From: Eledone cirrhosa
Taxonomy: Eukaryota
Direction of reading: 5' to 3'
Length of the DNA stretch: 25,354 nucleotides
Assembly: GCA_964016885.1 (NCBI GenBank)
Contig: CAXHJY010001271.1
Location: 1 to 25,354, forward strand
Below the pieces are notes generated by a model. That model worked only from the letters and a program-made list of their open reading frames with translations, was not told the DNA's origin and did no database searches. A program made the translations under genes and the position numbers. Of this stretch, positions 3,326 to 24,154 are shown in pieces (position 1 is the stretch's first letter; each line of letters starts with the position of its first letter).

Positions 3326-4005
3326 TATCTTCTCTACATGAGCTATGACACCAGCTGTGTCTTATCTCTCTACATGAACTATGACACCTGTTGTATTCTT
3401 GAGCTGTCCTATCTCTCTACATGAGCTATGATACCAGCTGTGTTCTTGAGCTGTCCCTATCTCTCTACATGAGCTATGATACCAGCTGTGTTGTTCAGTT
3501 GTCCTATCTCTCTACATGAGCTATGATACCAGCTGTGTTCTTGAGCTGTCCTATCTTTCTACATGAGCTATGATACCTGTTGTATTCTTGAGCTGTCCTA
3601 TCTCTCTACATGAGCTATGATACCAGCTGTGTTCTTGAGCTATCCTATCTCTCTACATGAGCTATGATACCAGCTGTGTTCTTGAGCTGTCCTATCTCTC
3701 TACATGAGCTATGATATCAGCTGTGTTCTTGAGCTATCCTATCTCTCTACATGAGCTATGATACCAGCTGTGTTCTTGAGCTGTCCTATCTCTCTACATG
3801 AGCTATGATACCAGCTGTGTTCTTGAGCTGTCCTATCTCTCTACATGAGCTATGATACCAGCTGTGTTCTTGAGCTGTCCTATCTCTCTACATGAGCTAT
3901 GATACCAGCTGTGTTCTTGAGCTGTCCTATCTCTCTACATGAGCTATGATACCAGCTGTGTTCTTGAGCTATCCTATCTCTCTACATGAGCTATGATACC
4001 TTCTG
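3326..4005. repeat. 47-bp minisatellite, ~14 copies
   Basis: Unit CTATCTCTCTACATGAGCTATGATACCAGCTGTGTTCTTGAGCTGTC. CTACATGAGC recurs at 3841 and 3888 (period 47). Confidence 0.97.
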
Positions 4006-4313
4006 TATTTTAGCCTTAATTTCTCCATAAGTTATGTTCCAGTCATGTCTTATAGTTTGTTGTTCTGTCATTTCCAGGCACCGTTTCTGTTGGTTGTTAT
4101 TTATTAATGTGTTTCTGTGCCAAATCTATTGAACTGGCACATTTTCTATAATATACAGTTACCATAGTAACTAACTTTACTTTGCCAATTTTTATATTTT
4201 AAAATAATTTCATTATTGTATTCCAGAAAATATGTAAATAAAGTTTCTCTATCATTTCATTCTATTTTTTGGCCAAGACTTCGTAATCATAGAGAATATG
4301 GTTAATGTTGTCT

Positions 4314-4600
4314 TTAACCCTTTCATTACCATATTTCTAATGTAAGACACTGTCTATATCTTTAACCCTTTCATTACCATATTTCTAATGTAAGACACTG
4401 TCTATGTTGTTTAACCCTTTCGTTACCATATTTCTAATGTAAGACACTGTCTATATCTTTAACCCTTTCGTTACCATATTTCTAATGTAAGACACTGTCT
4501 ATATCTTTAACCCTTTCATTACCATATTTCTAATGTAAGACACTGTCTATATCTTTAACCCTTTCATTGCGATATTTCTAATGAATGATACTGTCTATAA
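4314..4600. repeat. 48-bp tandem repeat, ~6 copies, made from a MITE terminus
   Basis: Unit TTAACCCTTTCATTACCATATTTCTAATGTAAGACACTGTCTATATCT, period 48 (4321 to 4369). Confidence 0.95.
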
Positions 4601-5278: not shown

Positions 5279-5701
5279 TATATATATATACATACATGCA
5301 CACATATATATATATATGTACGTATGGATTCACCGAACATTTATTATAATGAAATTATGAAATGAAATTTCGTTTCATTTTTTCCGTTTATCGTTTTCGG
5401 TGCGCCCGGCCGATTAACTCACTCGATATACAAATAAGGCTGCTCAGCCGATAATATGCATAAGGAAAGTATATACTTTCAGACGTTCAATCATCTGGCA
5501 GGAAGGTATACGTTGCTGACGATAGCTAATAAGCTTGAAACTAGTACAGCGTTCCTTTGTCAGTGTTGAACAAATGAGCAACGATGTTTGCTAGACAATG
5601 TACGGCTTAATTCGGGATGTTTGTTTACAAACAAACCGAGCATTATAATAAATGTTCGGTGAATCCATACGTACATATATATATATATGTGTGCATGTAT
5701 G

Positions 5702-7018: not shown

Positions 7019-7060
7019 ACCACTGACGATGTTGCAGATGTGCAACGAAAGATTTATGAT
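7019..7060 (+). ncRNA. Decayed minimal type I hammerhead in the PLE A 3' region
   Basis: ACCA-CTGACGA-T GTTGCA GATG TGCAAC-GAAA-GATT-TA-TGAT. Stem II is a perfect 6 bp and both core boxes are intact. Stem I has one mismatch and the stem III palindrome is imperfect (AGATTT versus AGATCT). Confidence 0.65.
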
Positions 7061-9054: not shown

Positions 9055-9093
9055 TGAACAAGTACTTTCATGCTTTCGCAATCTTCAGGTTCA
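9055..9093 (-). ncRNA. Minimal type I hammerhead ribozyme in the PLE B 3' pLTR
   Basis: Minus strand: TGAAC-CTGAAGA-T TGC GAAA GCA T-GAAA-GTAC-TT-GTTCA. Stem I is a perfect 5 bp, stem II is GNRA-capped, stem III is palindromic (AGTACT), and the predicted cleavage triplet is CUU at 9060. Confidence 0.9.
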
Positions 9094-9460: not shown

Positions 9461-11647
9461 TTATTGTTCATTTAGCTTGGGTTTGAATTTATCAATAAAA
9501 TTCTTTTCTTTGATTTTTCTCTTGATTTCACTTGGGCTGTGTAATTTGTAGAATGGGAATATTATAAATATTCCCTGACCACATGTTGCCAGGTGGCCGC
9601 TTAGGGGTATCTGACGGACATTTGGGTCTCTGATTTGTTGACGGTGTACCCGTGCACGCTCCGATAGTGCATTTCCAGTTTGACCGACATATAGTTCTTC
9701 ACAATTCGGGCATTTAATGCAGTAAATTAGATTTCTGCTTTTGCAGTTCATATTTGCATTTGGGAATATTTTTCCAGTTTTTGTTTTCATATATTGACCG
9801 GCGTGTATGGATTGACATGTGCCGCATCGATTATCATTGCATTTAGATACAGTGAATGATTGGTCTTTGTTGTTAAGGTCAAACTTTGCTTTTGTTAGCA
9901 ATTGCTTCAAATTTTTTGGCTGTCTTTTACTAAGAGTCAAAGATCGATCTGTGATTAAACCTTTTAATTCATTACTTTGAGCAATGATCGGTAGGTTTGC
10001 TTTGGCAGTGTTGAAGATATTCTGGTGACATGGGTTGTGTGTCATTATAAATGGTATGACCAGTTCTTGGTTTCTTCTTCCTTGGGTTGTTCTAAGTTGT
10101 TGTATAGGTATTTTTATAGCCCGCTGTATGCCATTTTCTATAAGTAGAGATGGGTATTTTTGTTTGAGCAAAAATTCTCTTAGTTCTGTTAGGCGTTTGT
10201 ACCTGGTATTCGTATCTTCTACAATGGTACAAATTCTTCTGGCTAGGCAGTATGGGATGTTGCGTTTTGTATGAGGTGGATGGCACGACTTAAAATTCAG
10301 ATATTGATGGGTGTCTGTGTGTTTATAATATATATCCGTGGTAATGGTGGTGTCGTTTTTGATTATCATTATATCTAGGAATGGTAATTTGGTCCTACTC
10401 ATCTCTTTTGTGAATTGGAGAGATGGGTGTAGGTTATTCAGGAGGATATTGAACTCATCCAGAGTATCTAGAGATTCTGTCCAGATGATGAAACAGTCGT
10501 CAAGGTATCTCTTCCAAGATTTTTCAATGTACTTTCTAAAGTCAGTACTATATTTTTCCTCTATTTCTTGGTAGAGTTGTTGTTCTAAGTATCCCATTAC
10601 AGAGTTCGCGTAAACGGGAGCAAACTTCGTTCCCATCGCTGTGCCTCTAATTTGGATGTAATTCTTTCCATTGAAGAAGAAAGTGTTGTTTTCCAGAATA
10701 AGTTTAACTGCGTCTAATATAAATGGCGCTGTGAATCTAATGGGAATCACTTCTCTATGTTTTTCCACCCAGTATTTAACCGCCTTTATTCCTAAATCAT
10801 GTGTAATGTTGGTGTAAAGGCTTACCACATCAAAACTGAGTAGAAGTGAATTCGTTTCCGTGGTTTTGGGAAGATGGGACAGGAAGTCGATATCATCCCG
10901 GATGAAACTGGGTATGTGAATACATAGTGGTTTCAAAATAATGTCAACAAAATTGCTTAGACGGTGAGTGGGGCATGTTGGACCAGCTATAATAGGTCTA
11001 AGTTTTAAGTCTTTTGGGTGTAATAATTTAATGTACTCACTGTTTTGTTCTCTTACTGCCAGTTGTATTTCTTTTGACTTGTGAACTTTCGGTAGGCCAT
11101 ACAGGTTGCTGGGTTTCGGCTCAAAATTGGTGATGTAGTCTCTTTCCTTATCAGTAAATGAGTTGTGGGATTTTGAACCCAGGTTGTTGATCTTCTTCAT
11201 GATGTTGTGGTCTATATTTGACGGTATTTCATGATAGAATGTTGTGTCTTTCAGTTGTTCCTCAACCAAATCCTTGTAGTATTCAGTATCCATTATAACA
11301 ACTGCACCCCCTTTATTTGCTTGTTTAATTATTATTGTTTTATCATTTTGTATACGTTTAAGTGCAGACATTTCTGATTTGTTAATGTTTGGCCTAACAT
11401 TAGTATTATGTCTAAGAGGAAATTTAGACAGGATGTCAATGTATTGGTCGAGATAGATATTTCTTCCTTTTGGCGGAGTGAAATTTGATTTATTCTTTAC
11501 TAGTGATTCATCACTCTCATTATTTTTATCAGCGAAGAATTCTACAAGACGTAATTTTCGACAGAATTCTTGGGTATCCTCCTTCAGTTCTTGGTGGTTG
11601 ACTGTTGGAGTCGGTGTGAATTTCAGTCCTTTTGACAGAATTTGCAT
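9461..11647 (-). CDS. PLE reverse transcriptase + GIY-YIG endonuclease (728 aa from ATG; frame stays open upstream to 11788)
   Basis: LSKGLKFTPTP, IIKQANKGGAVV (DKG motif as NKG), YGLPKVHK, LRPII, FDVVSLYTNI, GTAMGTKFAP, RYLDD, LPFLD, SCHPPH, CNDNRCGTC linker, NLIYCIKCPNC..YVGQT..R..H, KE..I..LN. The in-frame upstream sequence encodes KIINLSKRDL before a TGA at 11789-11791. Confidence 0.93.
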   Translation of the reverse strand: MQILSKGLKFTPTPTVNHQELKEDTQEFCRKLRLVEFFADKNNESDESLVKNKSNFTPPKGRNIYLDQYIDILSKFPLRHNTNVRPNINKSEMSALKRIQNDKTIIIKQANKGGAVVIMDTEYYKDLVEEQLKDTTFYHEIPSNIDHNIMKKINNLGSKSHNSFTDKERDYITNFEPKPSNLYGLPKVHKSKEIQLAVREQNSEYIKLLHPKDLKLRPIIAGPTCPTHRLSNFVDIILKPLCIHIPSFIRDDIDFLSHLPKTTETNSLLLSFDVVSLYTNITHDLGIKAVKYWVEKHREVIPIRFTAPFILDAVKLILENNTFFFNGKNYIQIRGTAMGTKFAPVYANSVMGYLEQQLYQEIEEKYSTDFRKYIEKSWKRYLDDCFIIWTESLDTLDEFNILLNNLHPSLQFTKEMSRTKLPFLDIMIIKNDTTITTDIYYKHTDTHQYLNFKSCHPPHTKRNIPYCLARRICTIVEDTNTRYKRLTELREFLLKQKYPSLLIENGIQRAIKIPIQQLRTTQGRRNQELVIPFIMTHNPCHQNIFNTAKANLPIIAQSNELKGLITDRSLTLSKRQPKNLKQLLTKAKFDLNNKDQSFTVSKCNDNRCGTCQSIHAGQYMKTKTGKIFPNANMNCKSRNLIYCIKCPNCEELYVGQTGNALSERARVHRQQIRDPNVRQIPLSGHLATCGQGIFIIFPFYKLHSPSEIKRKIKEKNFIDKFKPKLNEQ

Positions 11648-11972
11648 TTCATCATTGTCAAGATCTCTTTTAGATAAATTAATTATTTTAGGATCTACGT
11701 GTACAGCTGTTTTGGGTATGTTTCCTCCTGAAGTTTTTCTTTTTCCGGTTTTTGTTGTCCTGACGTTAAAAAATGGATTTTTCTCTGTTCAGGATTTATA
11801 TTCCTGTTGGTGTTCGCTTGATGAAATTTTGGTCGTGATATTATATTTGGTTTCGTTATATATTTTGTCCTATTTTTGGTATTCTGTTAGCATTATTTTT
11901 AACAATCTGGGAAAATGACCTAGGTTTGCTTTCAGGTTTAGATCGTTTTTTCGTCCAGTTTCTTGTGGGCAA

Positions 11973-12302: not shown

Positions 12303-12638
12303 TCGTCGTTTCATTTTACGTCCACTTTTCCCTGCTTGCAAGGATGGGACGGGAACTGATTCTGGCTTGATTTCTACAGCTGGATGCCCTTCCTAACACC
12401 AACCTCATTTACAGTGAGTGCTGGTGCTTTTTTTTGCCGTGGCACCTCCACGACCACTTTGAAGTGGAATGATAGGGACCCCAGTCCCTATCATCTCATT
12501 TCTACAGCTGAGTAAACTGGAGCAATGTGAAATAAAGTGTCTTGCTCAAGGAAACAACACATCACCCGGTCTGAGAATTGAACTCACAACCTTTTGATTG
12601 CAAGGCCAATGCTCTAACCACTAAGCCATGTGCCTCCA
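12303..12638 (-). mobile_element. tRNA-derived SINE with an RTE-like 3' tail
   Basis: Minus strand: GGAGGCACA-TGGCTTAGTGG (A box)..GAGTTCAATTC (B box), body TCCTTGAGCAAGACACTTTATTTCAC, and tail GGTTGGTGTTAGGAAGGGCATCCAGCTGTAGAAA..GCAAGCAGGGAAAAGTGGACGTAAAA shared with the RTE 3' UTR at 19995-20165. Confidence 0.85.
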
Positions 12639-12640
12639 TT

Positions 12641-14815
<2,175 letters not shown>

Positions 14816-15421
14816 TGTCAGGTCACCAGTTGGTGCTACTGGTAACATGTATCCCAGTACAACCTGTCTCATGGTCGGGTCGTTGGCGACTAAACTGGCA
14901 ACCCCACCAAGGTTTCTTGGTGAGGAGGGTGACTTTGGACATCCTGCAGGACTAAAAACAAAACCTGTCAAAGGGCAAAGGTCTCTTAAGAGTCAATGGC
15001 CATCCAAAATCACTGGGAGAGATGACCCCTTAGCCTTTGTCAAGGCAGAATTCTAGGAGAAGGAAAACTCTGATATAACACCTGCAACCCTGATGGTATC
15101 CAATGATGTTGACTTGTTCTTCTTTTTGGTAAATATCATCTTGGTTAAGAGAGTGGGACTGGCTTTGTGCAGTGCCTTTGCTCACTATAAAAGCTTCACG
15201 GCACAGGCATTGCTTTATATCTGGAGATCTCTCTGCACTTGTCGTCACATGGTACCATGGGCCCAGCACTGTGTCAATAATTGACACAAGTGTAGTGTTT
15301 GTACCAGAGTTTTCAAGTCGCTGGCTGGACTAAAAATTCACAATCGTTCAGCGCATCGGTAGGGGTTCTCCTACATGGATATAAAGTAGTGGCCGTACTC
15401 GAAAACGAGTTGGCAGCCACC

Positions 15422-15422
<1 letters not shown>
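14816..15422 (+). mobile_element. Bipartite non-autonomous RTE derivative (5' UTR fused to ORF C-terminus and 3' end)
   Basis: RTE 5'-UTR-like motif CTAGGAGAAGGAAAACTCTGA (15053-15073). 15291-15362 encodes [23 protein letters not shown], a C2H2 finger like RTE ORF C-termini. A 3' stem-loop ACTCG-AAAA-CGAGT (15397-15410) lies just before (TA)n. Confidence 0.7.
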
Positions 15423-16461
<1,039 letters not shown>

Positions 16462-18351
16462 ATCAACCATACGATTTAAAATCGATAAAGGAAGATTCGG
16501 GCCAAACAGATAAAAAATATCAATAAAACAATACGTCAATAATTTAAATGAATGTAAAATCATACCCGGACCCACTAGAAAGGTGTTAAATCTAGCTTCA
16601 TGGGTTTCTGTAAATCCTTAGACAGTACTCTATCAGCTCACATATAAATATAAAAGCCTACTAGAATAAGTGGAACGGAGTTTACGTTGTCAACGAGTTT
16701 TATCCTGGCGGCGAAGGAGTCAACTAGCGGTGAAAAACGCACATGGCATTAGACAAGGGAGATGACCCCTATATCCGCGAAAATAATTCGAGTGAATGTG
16801 GAAATACACATATCGAATTAGAGTGCTCAATAGACATGTTAAAATAAAACAAAAGCTATTCATCACTCAATAGAATCGACAAAAAATGAGCAATAAAATT
16901 AACTGGTGGATAGCTATGTCCAGAGCTAAATATATTAGAAAGATCGAGTATCGAAAAATCGGCGCACGAGTTCACGAAAAACGAAATTCGATATGAGCGG
17001 CAGAGGGCTCAATAATTCAGATGAATCAGAGCTATAACTATCGTTAAAATACCGTCACATATAGAACAAGTCTACAATCAACCATACGATTTAAAATCGA
17101 TAAAGGAAGATTCGGGCCAAACAGATAAAAAATATCAATAAAACAATACGTCAATAATTTAAATGAATGTAAAATCATACCCGGACCCACTAGAAAGGTG
17201 TTAAATCTAGCTTCATGGGTTTCTGTAAATCCTTAGACAGTACTCTATCAGCTCACATATAAATATAAAAGCCTACTAGAATAAGTGGAACGGAGTTTAC
17301 GTTGTCAACGAGTTTTATCCTGGCGGCAAAGGAGTCAACTAGCGGTGAAAAACGCACATGGCATTAGACAAGGGAGATGACCCCTATATCCGCGAAAATA
17401 ATTCGAGTGAATGTGGAAATACACATATCGAATTAGAGTGCTCAATAGACATGTTAAAATAAAACAAAAGCTATTCATCACTCAATAGAATCGACAAAAA
17501 ATGAGCAATAAAATTAACTGGTGGATAGCTATGTCCAGAGCTAAATATATTAGAAAGATCGAGTATCGAAAAATCGGCGCACGAGTTCACGAAAAACGAA
17601 ATTCGATATGAGCGGCAGAGGGCTCAATAATTCAGATGAATCAGAGCTATAACTATCGTTAAAATACCGTCACATATAGAACAAGTCTACAATCAACCAT
17701 ACGATTTAAAATCGATAAAGGAAGATTCGGGCCAAACAGATAAAAAATATCAATAAAACAATACGTCAATAATTTAAATGAATGTAAAATCATACCCGGA
17801 CCCACTAGAAAGGTGTTAAATCTAGCTTCATGGGTTTCTGTAAATCCTTAGACAGTACTCTATCAGCTCACATATAAATATAAAAGCCTACTAGAATAAG
17901 TGGAACGGAGTTTACGTTGTCAACGAGTTTTATCCTGGCGGCAAAGGAGTCAACTAGCGGTGAAAAACGCACATGGCATTAGACAAGGGAGATGACCCCT
18001 ATATCCGCGAAAATAATTCGAGTGAATGTGGAAATACACATATCGAATTAGAGTGCTCAATAGACATGTTAAAATAAAACAAAAGCTATTCATCACTCAA
18101 TAGAATCGACAAAAAATGAGCAATAAAATTAACTGGTGGATAGCTATGTCCAGAGCTAAATATATTAGAAAGATCGAGTATCGAAAAATCGGCGCACGAG
18201 TTCACGAAAAACGAAATTCGATATGAGCGGCAGAGGGCTCAATAATTCAGATGAATCAGAGCTATAACTATCGTTAAAATACCGTCACATATAGAACAAG
18301 TCTACAATCAACCATACGATTTAAAATCGATAAAGGAAGATTCGGGCCAAA
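16462..18351. repeat. Tandem array of a 615-bp non-coding unit: 3 full copies + 45-bp partial
   Basis: ATCAACCATACGATTTAAAATCG starts at 16462, 17077, 17692 and 18307. The only difference I found between copies is G at 16713 versus A at 17328/17943. Confidence 0.97.
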
Positions 18352-18365
18352 TATATATATGTATG

Positions 18366-18396
<31 letters not shown>

Positions 18397-18417
18397 ATAT
18401 ATATATATATATGTATG

Positions 18418-18448
<31 letters not shown>

Positions 18449-18449
18449 G

Positions 18450-18521
<72 letters not shown>

Positions 18522-18525
18522 CATG

Positions 18526-18558
<33 letters not shown>

Positions 18559-18619
18559 ATATATACATATATATATGTATGTATATATATACATATATAT
18601 ATTTCGTTTCTGAATAACA

Positions 18620-18707
<88 letters not shown>

Positions 18708-18754
18708 GTATGTATATATATATATATATATGTATGTATAAATATATATATATG

Positions 18755-18825
<71 letters not shown>

Positions 18826-19994: not shown

Positions 19995-21613
19995 CATCAT
20001 CATCATCATCATCAACGTTTAACGTCCGTGTTCCACGCTTGCATGGGTTTGGACGGGGGTAGTCCCACTTGAGGCAAGAGTGATTGTCTTGCTCACATAG
20101 GACTGTCTGGCAGGTTTTCTACAGTTGGATGCCCTTCCTAACACCAACCACATTTACAGTGTGGGTCTGGGAGGTTTTTACCGTGTTGCCTACACGGCCA
20201 CATTACAGCGTGGACTGTGTGTTTTTTGTCGTGACACCTACACGATCTCATTTGTTTCGGCCTGGATGGTGTGGCACCAACATAACTTTACATAGAACGG
20301 GGTGGTGTGGATGGGATGGGGTGGGGTGTGTGTGTGTGGGGGGGGGGGTATTTTGTTAGAGATGCCTACTGGCTGTAGTAGGTTTTACTATGTATTTAGG
20401 TAAGGCGGGTCTTCTCTGTTACTGAGTACCGCCAAAGGTCTCGGTCCAGTGACATTGTCTTGGAGAGGTGTAAGTGTGTGAGGTCGGAGTTTATCAGCTC
20501 GTCCCAGGTTTTTCTAGGTCTGCCTATTCCGTGGCTACCGTCTATCTTTATTGCCCTGCACTTTGTTATACAGCTATCGACTTTCATGCGCATCACGTGT
20601 CCATACCAACGTAGCCTTCTCTCGAGTAAACAACATCTGATCCATCTTATTTCTAATTTTTTCCTTAGTTCGTTTATGCTTCGCCGTTCACGTATATTAC
20701 TGTTACACATCCAGCGGAGCATGCAAGCTTCGTTCCTCTCTAGTCTGCGTATATCCTCTGCACTCAATGCCCAGGTCTCACTGCCATGCAACATTGCTGT
20801 TCGTATGCAGGCATCGTACAACCTGCCTTTCATTTTTAGGGAGAACCCTTTAGCAGCTAATAGTGGTATAAGCTCTCTGAACTTTTTCCAACCAGTTCTG
20901 ACTCTAGCTACTGTACTTTCAGAGCACCCTCCCCCACTGCTGATTTTATCACCCAGGTAACGGGAACTGTCCACTATTTCTATAGAACCCTCTGCGCAAT
21001 TGAAAGAGCTAGTATTTTGTGGGCACTTGCTGCTACTTATTGCACCAGAGCACCGGCCACATGTAAAATCTATGTTCTTAGTTAGCTTACCTGTGATCCC
21101 ACTACATCTTTTATGCACCCATACTTTGCATTTAGGACATAAAATGGAGTTTCTACCTACGCCTTTCCTACACACTGAGCACGACCATTTCCCAGAAGGG
21201 ACCGCCGCCTTATTTTCTTTCCTACAAACTAGAACTTTAGTCTTAGCCAGGTTAATTTTAAGGCCTTTTGATTCTAGGCTGTGCTTCCATGTTTGGAATT
21301 TCTTCTCTAGCTCGGCCATTGATTCCGCTATGAGTGTCAGGTCGTCTGCGTATAGGAGTTCCCATGGGCAGCCTGTCTTGAACTCCTCTGTTATAGCCTG
21401 AAGGGCAATAATAAATAGTAGGGGGCTGAGAACAGAGCCCTAATGAACGCCAACTTTTACGCTAAACTCTTCACTATATTCGTTGTTAATTCTAACCTTG
21501 CTGACTGTTTCTTTATACATGGCTTGTATAGCTCTCACAAGCCATTCGTCAACGCCTTGTTTTCTAAGAGCCCACCAGATAATGGAGCGGGGGACTCTGT
21601 CGAAGGCTTTCTC
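19995..21613 (-). mobile_element. 5'-truncated RTE-clade LINE with 3' UTR and (ATG)n tail
   Basis: RT coding remnant, a ~400-bp 3' UTR ending GGACGTTAAACGTT-(GAT)n, and truncation just 5' of EKAFDRV. Confidence 0.9.
20396..21613 (-). pseudogene. RTE ORF RT domain and C-terminus, one premature stop, with an inserted PHD finger
   Basis: EKAFDRVPR..VGVH*GSVLSPLLF (TAG at 21440-21442 in place of the Q of QG), LLYADD (YADD at 21341-21352), GLKINLAKTK, RYLG, LHGSETW, RRLRWYGHVMRM, GRPRKTW, all in one frame. Confidence 0.92.
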
Positions 21614-21718: not shown

Positions 21719-21797
21719 ACACACGCTGATGAACCGAGACTACCATTTCTTTCAACAAATTTTCTGGTGAAACATATCTTTGGATTTGTACGTGTGT
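21719..21797 (+). ncRNA. Type I hammerhead ribozyme upstream of PLE C
   Basis: ACACACG-CTGATGA-ACC(G)AGA..TCTGGT-GAAA-CATATC TTTG GATTTG-TA-CGTGTGT. Stem I is a perfect 7 bp, core boxes are intact, stem III is extended with one mismatch, and predicted GUA cleavage is after 21790. Confidence 0.9.
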
Positions 21798-21979
21798 TAT
21801 ATAGTTATAGAGGTATTTATTTACGCTTTAATTTATATTTTTAATTATCGTGTCTATAGTCTGCCTTTCATAGGTTATAGATTCCATACACTGGTGGTTT
21901 TTTCCCTGTATTATTGATAACGCACTATATATCTCTCTCTGGTGTGTTACCTTCTCAACATATTATATATATATATATA

Positions 21980-24154
21980 TGCAAAAGTTTTATTTAAGAA
22001 CAAAGACTTTATTAAACAATTAATAGAAAAATCAGACTCTTTTATAAGAAGAATCAGGTGGCGTGCCTTCCACTTTGATAAATCTAATCTAAATGAAAAT
22101 GTTTCAGATTTGGATAAAGTTATCAAATCTAAAAAAAAATCCACCCCCCAACAAACTACTAATGGATTTTGAAAACGATATCATTTCTATCATCCAAGGA
22201 ATCAATTCAAGAGAAACTTCAAAGGCCAGGACTATCTAAGATGCATTAAGGATAATATTGAAGGCTTGGAGAGAACAGAGAAGATCTTGGTGAAATCGGA
22301 CAAAACCAATAACCTTTATGGAGTACAAAAGGACATGTATAATGGGCCTTATATTGAAAGAACTAAGGAAAAAGTACAAGGTAGCAAGTAAGGACGAACT
22401 GGAAAAAATGAATGCAGAGGCATCTTGTATAATGCATGAATTAGACATTGCGAATAAAACACAACCCTTCATGCCTAGGAAACCCAAGATCAATATGAAA
22501 GATCACAAAAGAAATTTTGAAAATGATTTGCCAGTCAGATTGATTGCACCATCAAAATCTGACCTGGGAAAACTTAGCAAAAACATTCTAGACAGGGTAA
22601 TACAGCAAATTAAAAACTTACATAATTTACCTTACTTAAAGTTATGGAAGGGGACTGGTGAGGTTATTGAGTGGTTTAAAGAAATTAAATATAACTATAA
22701 TAATAAATTTATTCAACTTGATATTGCTAACTACTATTCATCTATCACTCCTAATCTACTGAATAAGGCACTAAATTACGCATTTAAACATACAGACCTA
22801 ACTAGCAATGAAATGCACATTATATTATCGGCAAGGAAAACATTGATAGAATTTAATAACCAACTATGGACTAGGGCAGATAGAGATAATAATTTCGACA
22901 TAACTATGGGATCATCTGACTCAGCTCAGGTAACGGACCTTGTGGGCCTATTTATAATTAATTCGCCTGCATAGAAAAATACCAGGTGTAACCGGAGGAT
23001 TATATCGTGATGACATGCTTTTACTTATTGAAAATAATAGCTGTGAACTAAATAGAAAAAGAAAACAAATTATACAATTTTTTAATTACCTTAATCTAAA
23101 ATAGAAATAGAGAAATAACCATAGAATAGTCAATATCCTAGATGTAACACTAAATCTCAACACATGTCTTCACTATCCATTTCACAAACTAAATGAGAAC
23201 TTGAATTATGTCAATTTTAACTCTAATAACCCCAGATCTGTTAAAAATACTATAGTGAACTCTGTTCAAGAACGAATCTCAAGAATTTCATCTAATAAAA
23301 ATATTTTTGACGAAAAAGCGCAGTATTACAATGAAGCGTTAGCTAGAGCAGGATATAGTGATAAAATTAAGTACATCGATAATAATAAGCAAACTAACCA
23401 AAATAATAACAATTTTAATTACGGTAACAACATTAACAACTATAATAGAAAACATTACAATAATTCAAAAGCCGAAAAAGAAATAGAACTAGAATATAAT
23501 ATGGTTTGCCCCCCCCCCCCCTTTTTCACTAAAATATTAAAACCCATATTGCTAAACTATTCTTTAATGCTCTTGACAAACGCTTCCCTAGAACACATAA
23601 ATATCACTCAATTTTTAATAGACATACTATTAAATTAACTTACTCGTCACCAAAAATTTAGCACCAAAATATTAACAGAATTAATAATAGGAATTTAAAA
23701 CATAACCAAAATACCAATAATAACCCAAACAATATCAATTAAATAACTGTAAATGTAGAAATAAATCTAACTGTCCGTTAAATAACAATTGCTTAGTTAA
23801 AAATATAGTATACATTGTAATGTTAAAACTAACTTAAATTCTTTCAACTATGTTGGTTCCACCTCGACAGAATTTAAACTTCGCTTCAGTAATCATAAGA
23901 ATTCTTTCACAGATCCAACAAAAAATCCTCAACTTCGCTATCAAGCCTACTCTGGCAACTTAAACGAGATAATGTTGAGTATTCGATGTTTTGGAATATT
24001 GTCTCAAGAGGGATTCCTTAATTCCTCATCTGAGACATGTGATCTCTGTGTGGAGGAGATATTCTTTATATTAAAATCCAAAAATTCCCTTAATTTAAGG
24101 AGCAATTTATTCAGTTGCTGCAGACATAGATTGAACTCAACGTTTAAAATATAA
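21980..24154 (+). pseudogene. PLE C RT + GIY-YIG, multiple frameshifts
   Basis: Fragments in order: LIEKSDSFIRRIRWRAFHF, ILVKSDKTNNLY, KDHK..PVRLIAPSKSDLGKLSK, FIQLDIANYYSSI, FDITMGSSDSAQVTDLVG, GLYRDD (YRDD at 23003-23014), NILDVTLNL, CKCRNKSNCPLNNNCLVKNIVY, YVGSTSTEFKLRFSNHKNSF, CDLCVEE..LNLRSNLFSCCRH. Confidence 0.9.

Follow-up and report, generated by a model that had tools for sequence, protein, structure and literature searches.

A 615-bp tandem unit in a TA microsatellite of Eledone cirrhosa: a candidate Penelope-dependent, retrozyme-like element with an irregular hammerhead-like motif

The window analysed here, a stretch of 25,354 nucleotides from Eledone cirrhosa (GCA_964016885.1, contig CAXHJY010001271.1), contains a short head-to-tail array of a non-coding 615-bp unit, and our analysis suggests, with a probability of roughly one half (about 0.52), that this unit is a young non-autonomous element of the non-LTR retrozyme type, which would be mobilized in trans by a Penelope-like element and would carry an irregular hammerhead that cuts slowly or with assistance. 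The Penelope-dependent, retrozyme-like reading is based on the multimer with its tail-sized extension, the (TA)n site, the other copies and their junctions, and the adjacent Penelope elements. The original prediction had proposed a non-autonomous, Penelope-dependent structured RNA without a canonical hammerhead, and the multimer, the TA site, the copies, and the neighbours fit this proposal; however, the RNA strand is probably the minus strand, a hammerhead-like motif is present, and the fold is marginal.

Results

Anatomy of the array

The array consists of three units of 615 bp plus 45 bp, with one ambiguous A counted per end:

16462–18351, minus strand (probable): whole insert, three units and a 45-bp extension in (TA)n, from the period-615 match
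16463–17077, minus strand (probable orientation): unit copy 1, G at 16713
17078–17692, minus strand: unit copy 2, from the period-615 match
17693–18307, minus strand: unit copy 3, identical to copy 2, from the period-615 match
18308–18351, minus strand: terminal redundancy of 44 bp, or 45 bp if the ambiguous A is included, similar in size to the 30–40 bp Penelope tail

In a self-comparison at period 615, 1273 of 1274 positions are identical, which bears out the three near-identical copies and the 45-bp partial in (TA)n that had been described. The sole difference between copies is position 16713, which is G in copy 1 and A in copies 2 and 3, and as this position is unpaired at p > 0.5 on both strands, the change does lie in a loop. 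The left end of copy 1 would be the RNA 3′ end and the point at which reverse transcription started. The unit has no internal ORF of 60 aa or more, as had been noted: the longest ATG-initiated ORF has 47 aa, and the longest stop-free stretch has 62 codons. Also the higher CpG content holds, with an observed/expected ratio of 1.40 in the array versus 0.24–1.06 (mean 0.64) in 28 windows of the same length from the non-microsatellite flanks.

Copies in public sequencing runs

Words of the unit were found in 17 of the 24 listed runs (13 studies), none of the listed holders being an RNA run, and 11 run rows from seven studies with eight organism labels hold 43–81% of the sampled unit words; the best-holding run may be the source of the window itself. 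Reads were assembled against the unit in four of the 24 runs (X3, X12, X14, and X18), with the small-share runs X13, X15, X16, and X17 left out. Rows of 0.00 (X20–X24) are no proof of absence, and run X18, with 0 matching reads in 1938 million letters, carries no weight as absence either. Run X3 gave 10 records, four at 99% identity or more, two at 90–95%, and four under 90% (8 of the 10 are listed), and relatives of 86–94% identity thus occur beside exact copies. The loose ends of X3 at 16718 and 16945 enter DNA that shares 12- and 16-nt motifs with window repeats at 20084 and 19530, and those at 16732 and 16848 read as more diverged homologues. The two clear junctions (16718 and 16945) are not TA, and there is no TA junction among the loose ends listed. 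Since run X3 contains exact and 86–94% identical copies with other junctions, the unit belongs to a multi-locus family, whose copies occupy several loci in different phases, outside TA as well. A single locus had been named beforehand as one outcome that would speak against the proposal; what X3 contains is multiple junctions and diverged copies.

The unit-to-unit joint is present in contigs of three of the four runs examined, including one exact contig across the joint each in X12 and X14 (depths 3.5 and 2.2), and this proves a tandem or permuted organization, not a circle. X12 and X14 were considered as holders of diverged relatives, but their low shares reflect partial exact cover, and their 37-nt matches at 16511–16551 look like AT-rich chance. 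In X14, the other loose ends are nearly without G, as in a converted library, and the matching piece is unconverted; contamination may therefore explain some of the holders. The contig depth in X3 is 3–20, near that of single variant records, contig depth being no copy number. For the labels B, C, and H, one sample holds 43–81% of the unit words and another near none, which does not prove absence there and could reflect polymorphism, mixed samples, or contamination.

Neighbouring elements

The window is an AT-rich animal region with many TA tracts, and its annotated neighbours of the array are the following:

3358–4000: minisatellite, 47 bp, 13.7 copies
4311–4599: minisatellite, 48 bp, 6 copies
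5506–5556 (plus strand), 7023–7060 (plus strand), and 9060–9088 (minus strand): minimal hammerhead motifs at ends of Penelope-like elements
9461–11788, minus strand: 775-codon stop-free frame with reverse transcriptase (RT) and GIY-YIG domain matches
12571–12628, minus strand: tRNA-like SINE head abutting a TA tract, Rfam tRNA 28.5 bits (threshold 29)
20396–21439, minus strand: RT fragment that contains a PHD-finger-like domain as an insertion (Pfam PHD, E 1.9e-06)
21719–21797, plus strand: complete type I hammerhead (stem I of 7 bp, loop II long, stem III extended), from the motif scan, missed by Rfam

The frame at 9461–11788 is, judged by its domain matches, a nearly intact Penelope-like element, and the RT fragment at 20396–21439 is presumably of the RTE type. 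Hammerhead motifs of the window lie at 5516, 7023, 9088, and 21726, and the complete hammerhead at 21719–21797 is directly upstream of a broken element at about 21900–24150 that has RWR and DKT motifs. As RWK and DKT motifs mark the Hydra clade (PMC8557442), this broken element appears to be a Hydra-like Penelope remnant. An Rfam scan of the whole window, of which we used the best 150 of 292 rows, was dominated by microsatellite matches. No alignable similarity of the unit to the neighbouring Penelope elements was found, which counts against our main reading.

A hammerhead-like motif on the minus strand

The minus strand of each unit carries CUGA-U-AGA, a 20-nt stem II region, GAAA, a 6-bp stem III, and GUC:

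16558–16646, minus strand: type I hammerhead-like motif, core CUGA-U-AGA at 16636–16629, predicted cut after 16569
17173–17261, minus strand: second motif copy, predicted cut after 17184
17788–17876, minus strand: third motif copy, predicted cut after 17799

The three copies bound two cut-to-cut monomers of 615 nt. Stem II is weak, stem III has 6 bp and a long cap, and stem I consists of one proximal pair, an internal loop, and then six AU/GU-rich pairs; in the core, CUGANGA contains one insertion, and an A is bulged before G12. With its poor stem I and its core insertion, the motif is not canonical, and a descriptor for canonical or minimal type I hammerheads (stem II of at least 2, stem III of at least 2, stem I of at least 3) had no match in the unit. 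The claim that there is no canonical hammerhead is therefore correct as such, but an irregular type I hammerhead-like motif is present on the minus strand, which the prediction had not examined, and a new ribozyme class is unnecessary. The best reading of the motif, as far as its sequence tells, is that of a variant or decayed hammerhead. It is found on one strand only; a type III reading and a plus-strand core CAGAUGA did not close (both judged by eye), and HDV-like and twister descriptors, which were run with no positive control, gave no match. Rfam gave no match on the motif alone and two chance matches on the unit (E 8.2), a blank that is weak, as the control hammerhead at 21719–21797 was missed as well.

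With a descriptor that was drawn up after the motif had been seen, the core with a stem II of at least 3, a stem III of at least 5, and UH was found in 3 of 3000 dinucleotide shuffles, and a relaxed core in 77 of 3000. The variant core pattern occurs at 16 viral loci and at least 120 genome loci. Among the matches listed, a stem III of at least 5 was seen in 1 of 120 distinct prokaryotic or viral core matches, and none of the 120 combined a stem III of at least 4 with a stem I of at least 3, which gives no indication that this core variant forms a prokaryotic family.

The distance from the predicted cut to the putative 3′ end is 106 nt, and the chance of falling into a range of 30–155 nt is about 1 in 5. 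By hand arithmetic from Files S1 and S2 of PMC8557442, this distance is about 30–155 nt in 23 of 25 Hydra families, and the remaining two have a hammerhead at the 5′ end in one case and at about 355 nt in the other. By eye, Hydra-1_Obim is alone among these 25 in having TGTCTA in the 5′ arm of stem II together with an acca/tggt stem III (PMC8557442), and the motif of the unit has TGTCTA in stem II and ACCCA/TGGGT in stem III. Record 12, a 92% relative, differs at no more than one position in the 35 nt that cover the core but has 11 substitutions in the next 90 nt, a contrast with P of about 0.07 by hand and a possible bias of contig ends.

The hammerhead fold of the motif lies 9.3 kcal/mol above the best fold, as compared to 3.6 and 6.8 for two control hammerheads of the window, and the core is predicted to be buried in an alternative stem. 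This penalty, together with the weak stem I and the core insertion, leads to the most serious alternative, a Penelope-dependent element whose motif is dead or coincidental and which moves as a linear multimer that stays uncut and is copied by internal initiation, neither a circle nor self-cleavage being involved. Findings in known systems fit such a state: hammerhead mutations had no effect on in vitro insertion by the anole Penelope protein (PMC11167929), one of nine predicted frog retrozyme dimers was active and the other eight stayed uncut (bioRxiv 10.64898/2026.07.22.740005), and Naiads, which like Hydra families occur in octopus, are described as spreading without canonical hammerheads (PMC8557442). 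A natural insertion after A6 goes along with low activity, and hits with such defects were rejected as mostly cryptic mutants in repeats (PMC3088659). Against a dead motif stand its position, its strand, and its likeness to Hydra-1_Obim, as well as the quiet core of record 12; we regard this alternative as unlikely, and we keep the irregular, slow hammerhead as the preferred reading.

Folding and the strand of the RNA

The linear fold of the unit has z-scores of −1.32 (plus) and −1.93 (minus) with 20 shuffles, and the circular fold has −1.54 on the plus strand and −2.2 on the minus strand, values that 8 and 1 of 100 shuffles, respectively, equal or better. Only one of 16 sliding 100-nt windows, 16783–16882, is below z −2 (−4.1 plus, −2.5 minus), and 7 of 74 window-strands in control windows from neighbouring elements are likewise. 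The description of the unit as hairpin-dense was thus overstated, and relative to shuffles the whole unit folds marginally, not strongly, better. Most of the plus-strand stems that had been listed are predicted at p > 0.5, but TCCT/AGGA and TGCTCA/TGAGCA are below. The circular fold is branched and 54–59% paired, and its annotated local structures are:

16708–16778, minus strand: stem-loop with helices 16708–11/16775–78 and 16715–22/16763–70 (p 0.99)
16784–16820, no strand assigned: hairpin that folds on either strand, in the only window with a clear z-score

The tabulated variants break 13 pairs on the minus strand versus 14.1 expected by random placement (P 0.40), and 11 versus 9.9 on the plus strand (P 0.76), and this chance-level tally on both strands is evidence against strong structural selection. 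In record 14 (run X3), all eight pairs of the minus-strand helix 16715–22/16763–70 are retained by hand reading, with double changes of 16717 with 16768 and of 16721 with 16764. In addition, one G·U is replaced by G-C and one A-U by G·U, and there is no change in the 4-bp helix next to it. The two wobble positions pair only on the minus strand, which is thereby favoured. This covariation comes from one 151-nt record at depth 2, to which 30 loose letters were added by hand (18 of 30 identical, in register at 16702–16731), and the rough chance estimate for the kept helix is 0.003–0.03, before any correction for the small number of helices considered. In record 15, positions 16785 and 16819 change together in a way that is valid on either strand, and several of its further changes fit the plus strand better. 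The plus strand is A-rich, and each of its ends has an AC-rich loop that would suit the start site of the anole element; this counts against the minus strand. On balance, the RNA sense of the 615-bp unit is likely the minus strand, not the plus strand.

Viroid- and HDV-like circular RNAs are rod-like and highly paired and have ribozymes in both polarities, and the unit, with its branched fold and its motif on one strand, was rejected as a member of this class. A related idea, which we consider improbable, is that an outside viroid-like circular RNA or a host-crossing retrozyme was recently written in as a concatemer by a Penelope RT: the CpG is undepleted, the 43–81% shares come from runs of seven studies with eight organism labels, the low-share runs X12 and X14 hold exact pieces of 144–231 nt, and the long stem III and buried core recall viroid-type arrangements (PMC7229834). 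However, the unit is only 59% paired, the 86–94% relatives with genomic junctions in X3 imply that the family is old there, and the labels may stand for close relatives, mixed samples, or cross-contamination, as the case of X14 illustrates. Searches of outside collections also gave no match beyond chance: plasmid and phage collections gave short AT-rich chance matches only, exact patterns had no occurrence in viral contigs or prokaryotic genomes, and a 16-mer of the unit met 76 metagenome loci, none extending past 23 nt. A bolder version is very improbable in our view, namely a circular RNA that spreads actively by a hammerhead whose core strands each contain an insertion and whose stem I is almost absent, perhaps activated by the Penelope protein, and that crosses hosts near-identical to be written into TA microsatellites by Penelope reverse transcriptase.

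Assignment to element classes

The retrozyme-type reading, which we prefer, agrees with the non-coding head-to-tail tandem, the multiple loci in run X3, and the Penelope-like elements in the same genome, and the traits of a Penelope insertion at this one locus are the (TA)n target, the partial tandem, and an extension of 44–45 bp, slightly over 30–40. Despite these retrozyme-like workings, the unit is not filed as a retrozyme, as it lacks the canonical hammerhead that defines the class. Other classes were rejected: the unit has no ORF with RT and GIY-YIG as in an autonomous Penelope-like element, and it has no tRNA-like head with A and B boxes as in a tRNA-derived SINE, with no tRNA found. CRESS-virus satellite DNAs have a NANTANTAC origin in a stem-loop, and the NANTANTAC origin stem-loop is absent from the unit.

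Helitrons have a 5′ TC, a 3′ CTRR with a GC-rich hairpin, and an A|T target. The left junction of the insert reads A|TC and the right flank begins with T, but neither the insert nor the unit ends with CTRR, and a GC-rich subterminal hairpin is absent. A DNA-level repeat, be it a Helitron-like rolling-circle product or a local tandem duplication as a nascent satellite, would be in line with the almost identical copies and the marginal folding of the whole unit, but the depth in X3 does not indicate a high-copy satellite there, and the conserved helix, which works only with G·U pairs and on one strand, points to the RNA rather than the DNA level; we find such an origin highly improbable.

Flanks and integrity of the locus

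The insert is embedded in a duplicated tract:

15423–15845, no strand: interrupted TA tract that is repeated to the right of the insert, like a target duplication, from alignment to the right flank
15846–16461, no strand: inverted (fold-back) repeat of the tract before it, reaching about 15960, followed by near-pure (TA)n with phase slips as far as the left junction
18352–18760, no strand: right-hand copy of the duplicated TA tract, from alignment to the left tract

Alignment of 15423–15850 with 18351–18760 gives 400 identities, 5 mismatches, and 28 gap positions; about 420 bp of TA tract are thus duplicated on either side, with the fold-back at the left junction, and either a long target duplication followed by repair of a hairpin or an error of the assembly may account for this. 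Least probable of all is that the unit is genuine and the locus an assembly or amplification artefact with a false TA-tract join or an inflated copy number, as the repeated flank, the fold-back with noisy (TA)n, and the absence of the junctions of this locus from the sequencing runs examined would allow, since copy 1 differs by one base from copies 2 and 3, the unit-to-unit joint is found in contigs of three runs from different studies, inverted and duplicated flanks are known at Penelope insertions (PMC8557442), and the unit itself would be left unexplained.

The (TA)n at 9–2141 has 120 phase slips in 2133 bp, and that at 15960–16461 has 7 in the final 303 bp before the array; such slips may mark low consensus quality. 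The TA tract that carries the array also contains a 608-bp non-TA segment at 14815–15422, which we take to resemble the 5′ region of an RTE retrotransposon and on which Rfam found chance matches only. Its right junction is at the same point of the duplicated tract as that of the array, and on its left side the tract recurs as an older copy at about 13400–14400.

Discussion

The multimer, the TA site, the minus-strand motif, and the other copies with their junctions are observed, and from these we infer the RNA steps. In the model that we favor, the tandem array would be transcribed on the minus strand, an irregular type I hammerhead would cut after 16569 and the equivalent position of each unit, slowly or with the help of a protein, and the 615-nt monomers would be circularized by a host ligase. 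A Penelope protein would then nick (TA)n, prime on the nick, and begin to reverse-transcribe at a point some 106 nt 3′ of the cut; 3.07 units would be copied, either round the circle or along an uncut multimer, and repair would leave the 45-bp extension and the flank duplication. The same structure would result from a circular template and from internal initiation on a linear multimer (PMC11167929). The mobilizing Penelope-like element most likely belongs to the (TA)n-targeting Hydra clade.

Metazoan retrozymes have been described as tandem hammerhead units that are expressed as circles, with Penelope machinery proposed for their mobilization (PMC7229834), and non-LTR retrozymes of 51–972 bp have been linked to pLTRs (bioRxiv 10.64898/2026.07.22.740005). 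Related literature includes PMC4209133, PMC6765202, and PMC10085705. The unit resembles metazoan non-LTR retrozymes as a non-coding tandem with less than 50% GC and few copies per array, with one type I hammerhead-like motif per unit and a length within this range, so that the remark that retrozymes are usually shorter needs qualification. In contrast to these elements, its motif has a core insertion, a bulge, a poor stem I, and a long stem III, and while retrozyme hammerheads mostly fold freely, that of the unit is predicted to be sequestered. An insertion after A6 exists in nature, but the known variant, which was not described in a retrozyme, has low activity (PMC3088659), and the unit motif adds the G12 bulge and the weak stem I.

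Penelope traits include partial tandems, tails of 30–40 bp, and (TA)n targeting (PMC8557442). With Hydra-clade elements, the unit shares the (TA)n target, a hammerhead about 30–155 nt from the 3′ end, and a U-rich 3′ region, and with Hydra-1_Obim the letters in stems II and III. Unlike Hydra-clade elements, it has no ORF, and Hydra hammerheads have an intact CUGANGA and a stem I of 3–7 bp or longer, whereas the unit motif has neither; the 3′ end of Hydra-1_Obim has no likeness to the unit outside the motif (by eye). The anole Poseidon element combines AT-rich nicking, internal initiation, a 30–40 nt tail, and a protein-assisted hammerhead (PMC11167929), and the likeness extends to the AT-rich target, an RT start 85–92 nt 3′ of the cut, and the tail. 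However, Poseidon is autonomous and its start site is AC-rich, whereas the minus-strand 3′ end of the unit is U-rich, and both ends of the Poseidon tail are start sites, whereas the second end of the array would be a 5′ end.

Screens for retrozymes start from tandem repeats and retain only those with canonical or minimal hammerheads (bioRxiv 10.64898/2026.07.22.740005), and the unit is therefore invisible to them. In the literature we found no description of the unit or of a CUGAUAGA hammerhead, subscription papers, Dfam, and Repbase being outside the scope. If the motif cuts, the known hammerhead fold is widened and a retrozyme is tied to the Hydra clade. If it does not, the element offers a natural way to test if a ribozyme or a circle is required by Penelope-dependent parasites at all, a question that the anole work leaves open (PMC11167929). 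That near-identical copies occur under many organism labels merits a check for horizontal spread, and short of cleavage or expression the unit counts as a further non-autonomous repeat of an animal genome rich in repeats.

As a side observation, the 3′ end of Naiad_Obim in the supplement of PMC8557442 has, by eye, GAAAC shortly before CTGATGA, and boxes in this order would be compatible with a permuted (type II) hammerhead; the element is described as having no hammerhead.
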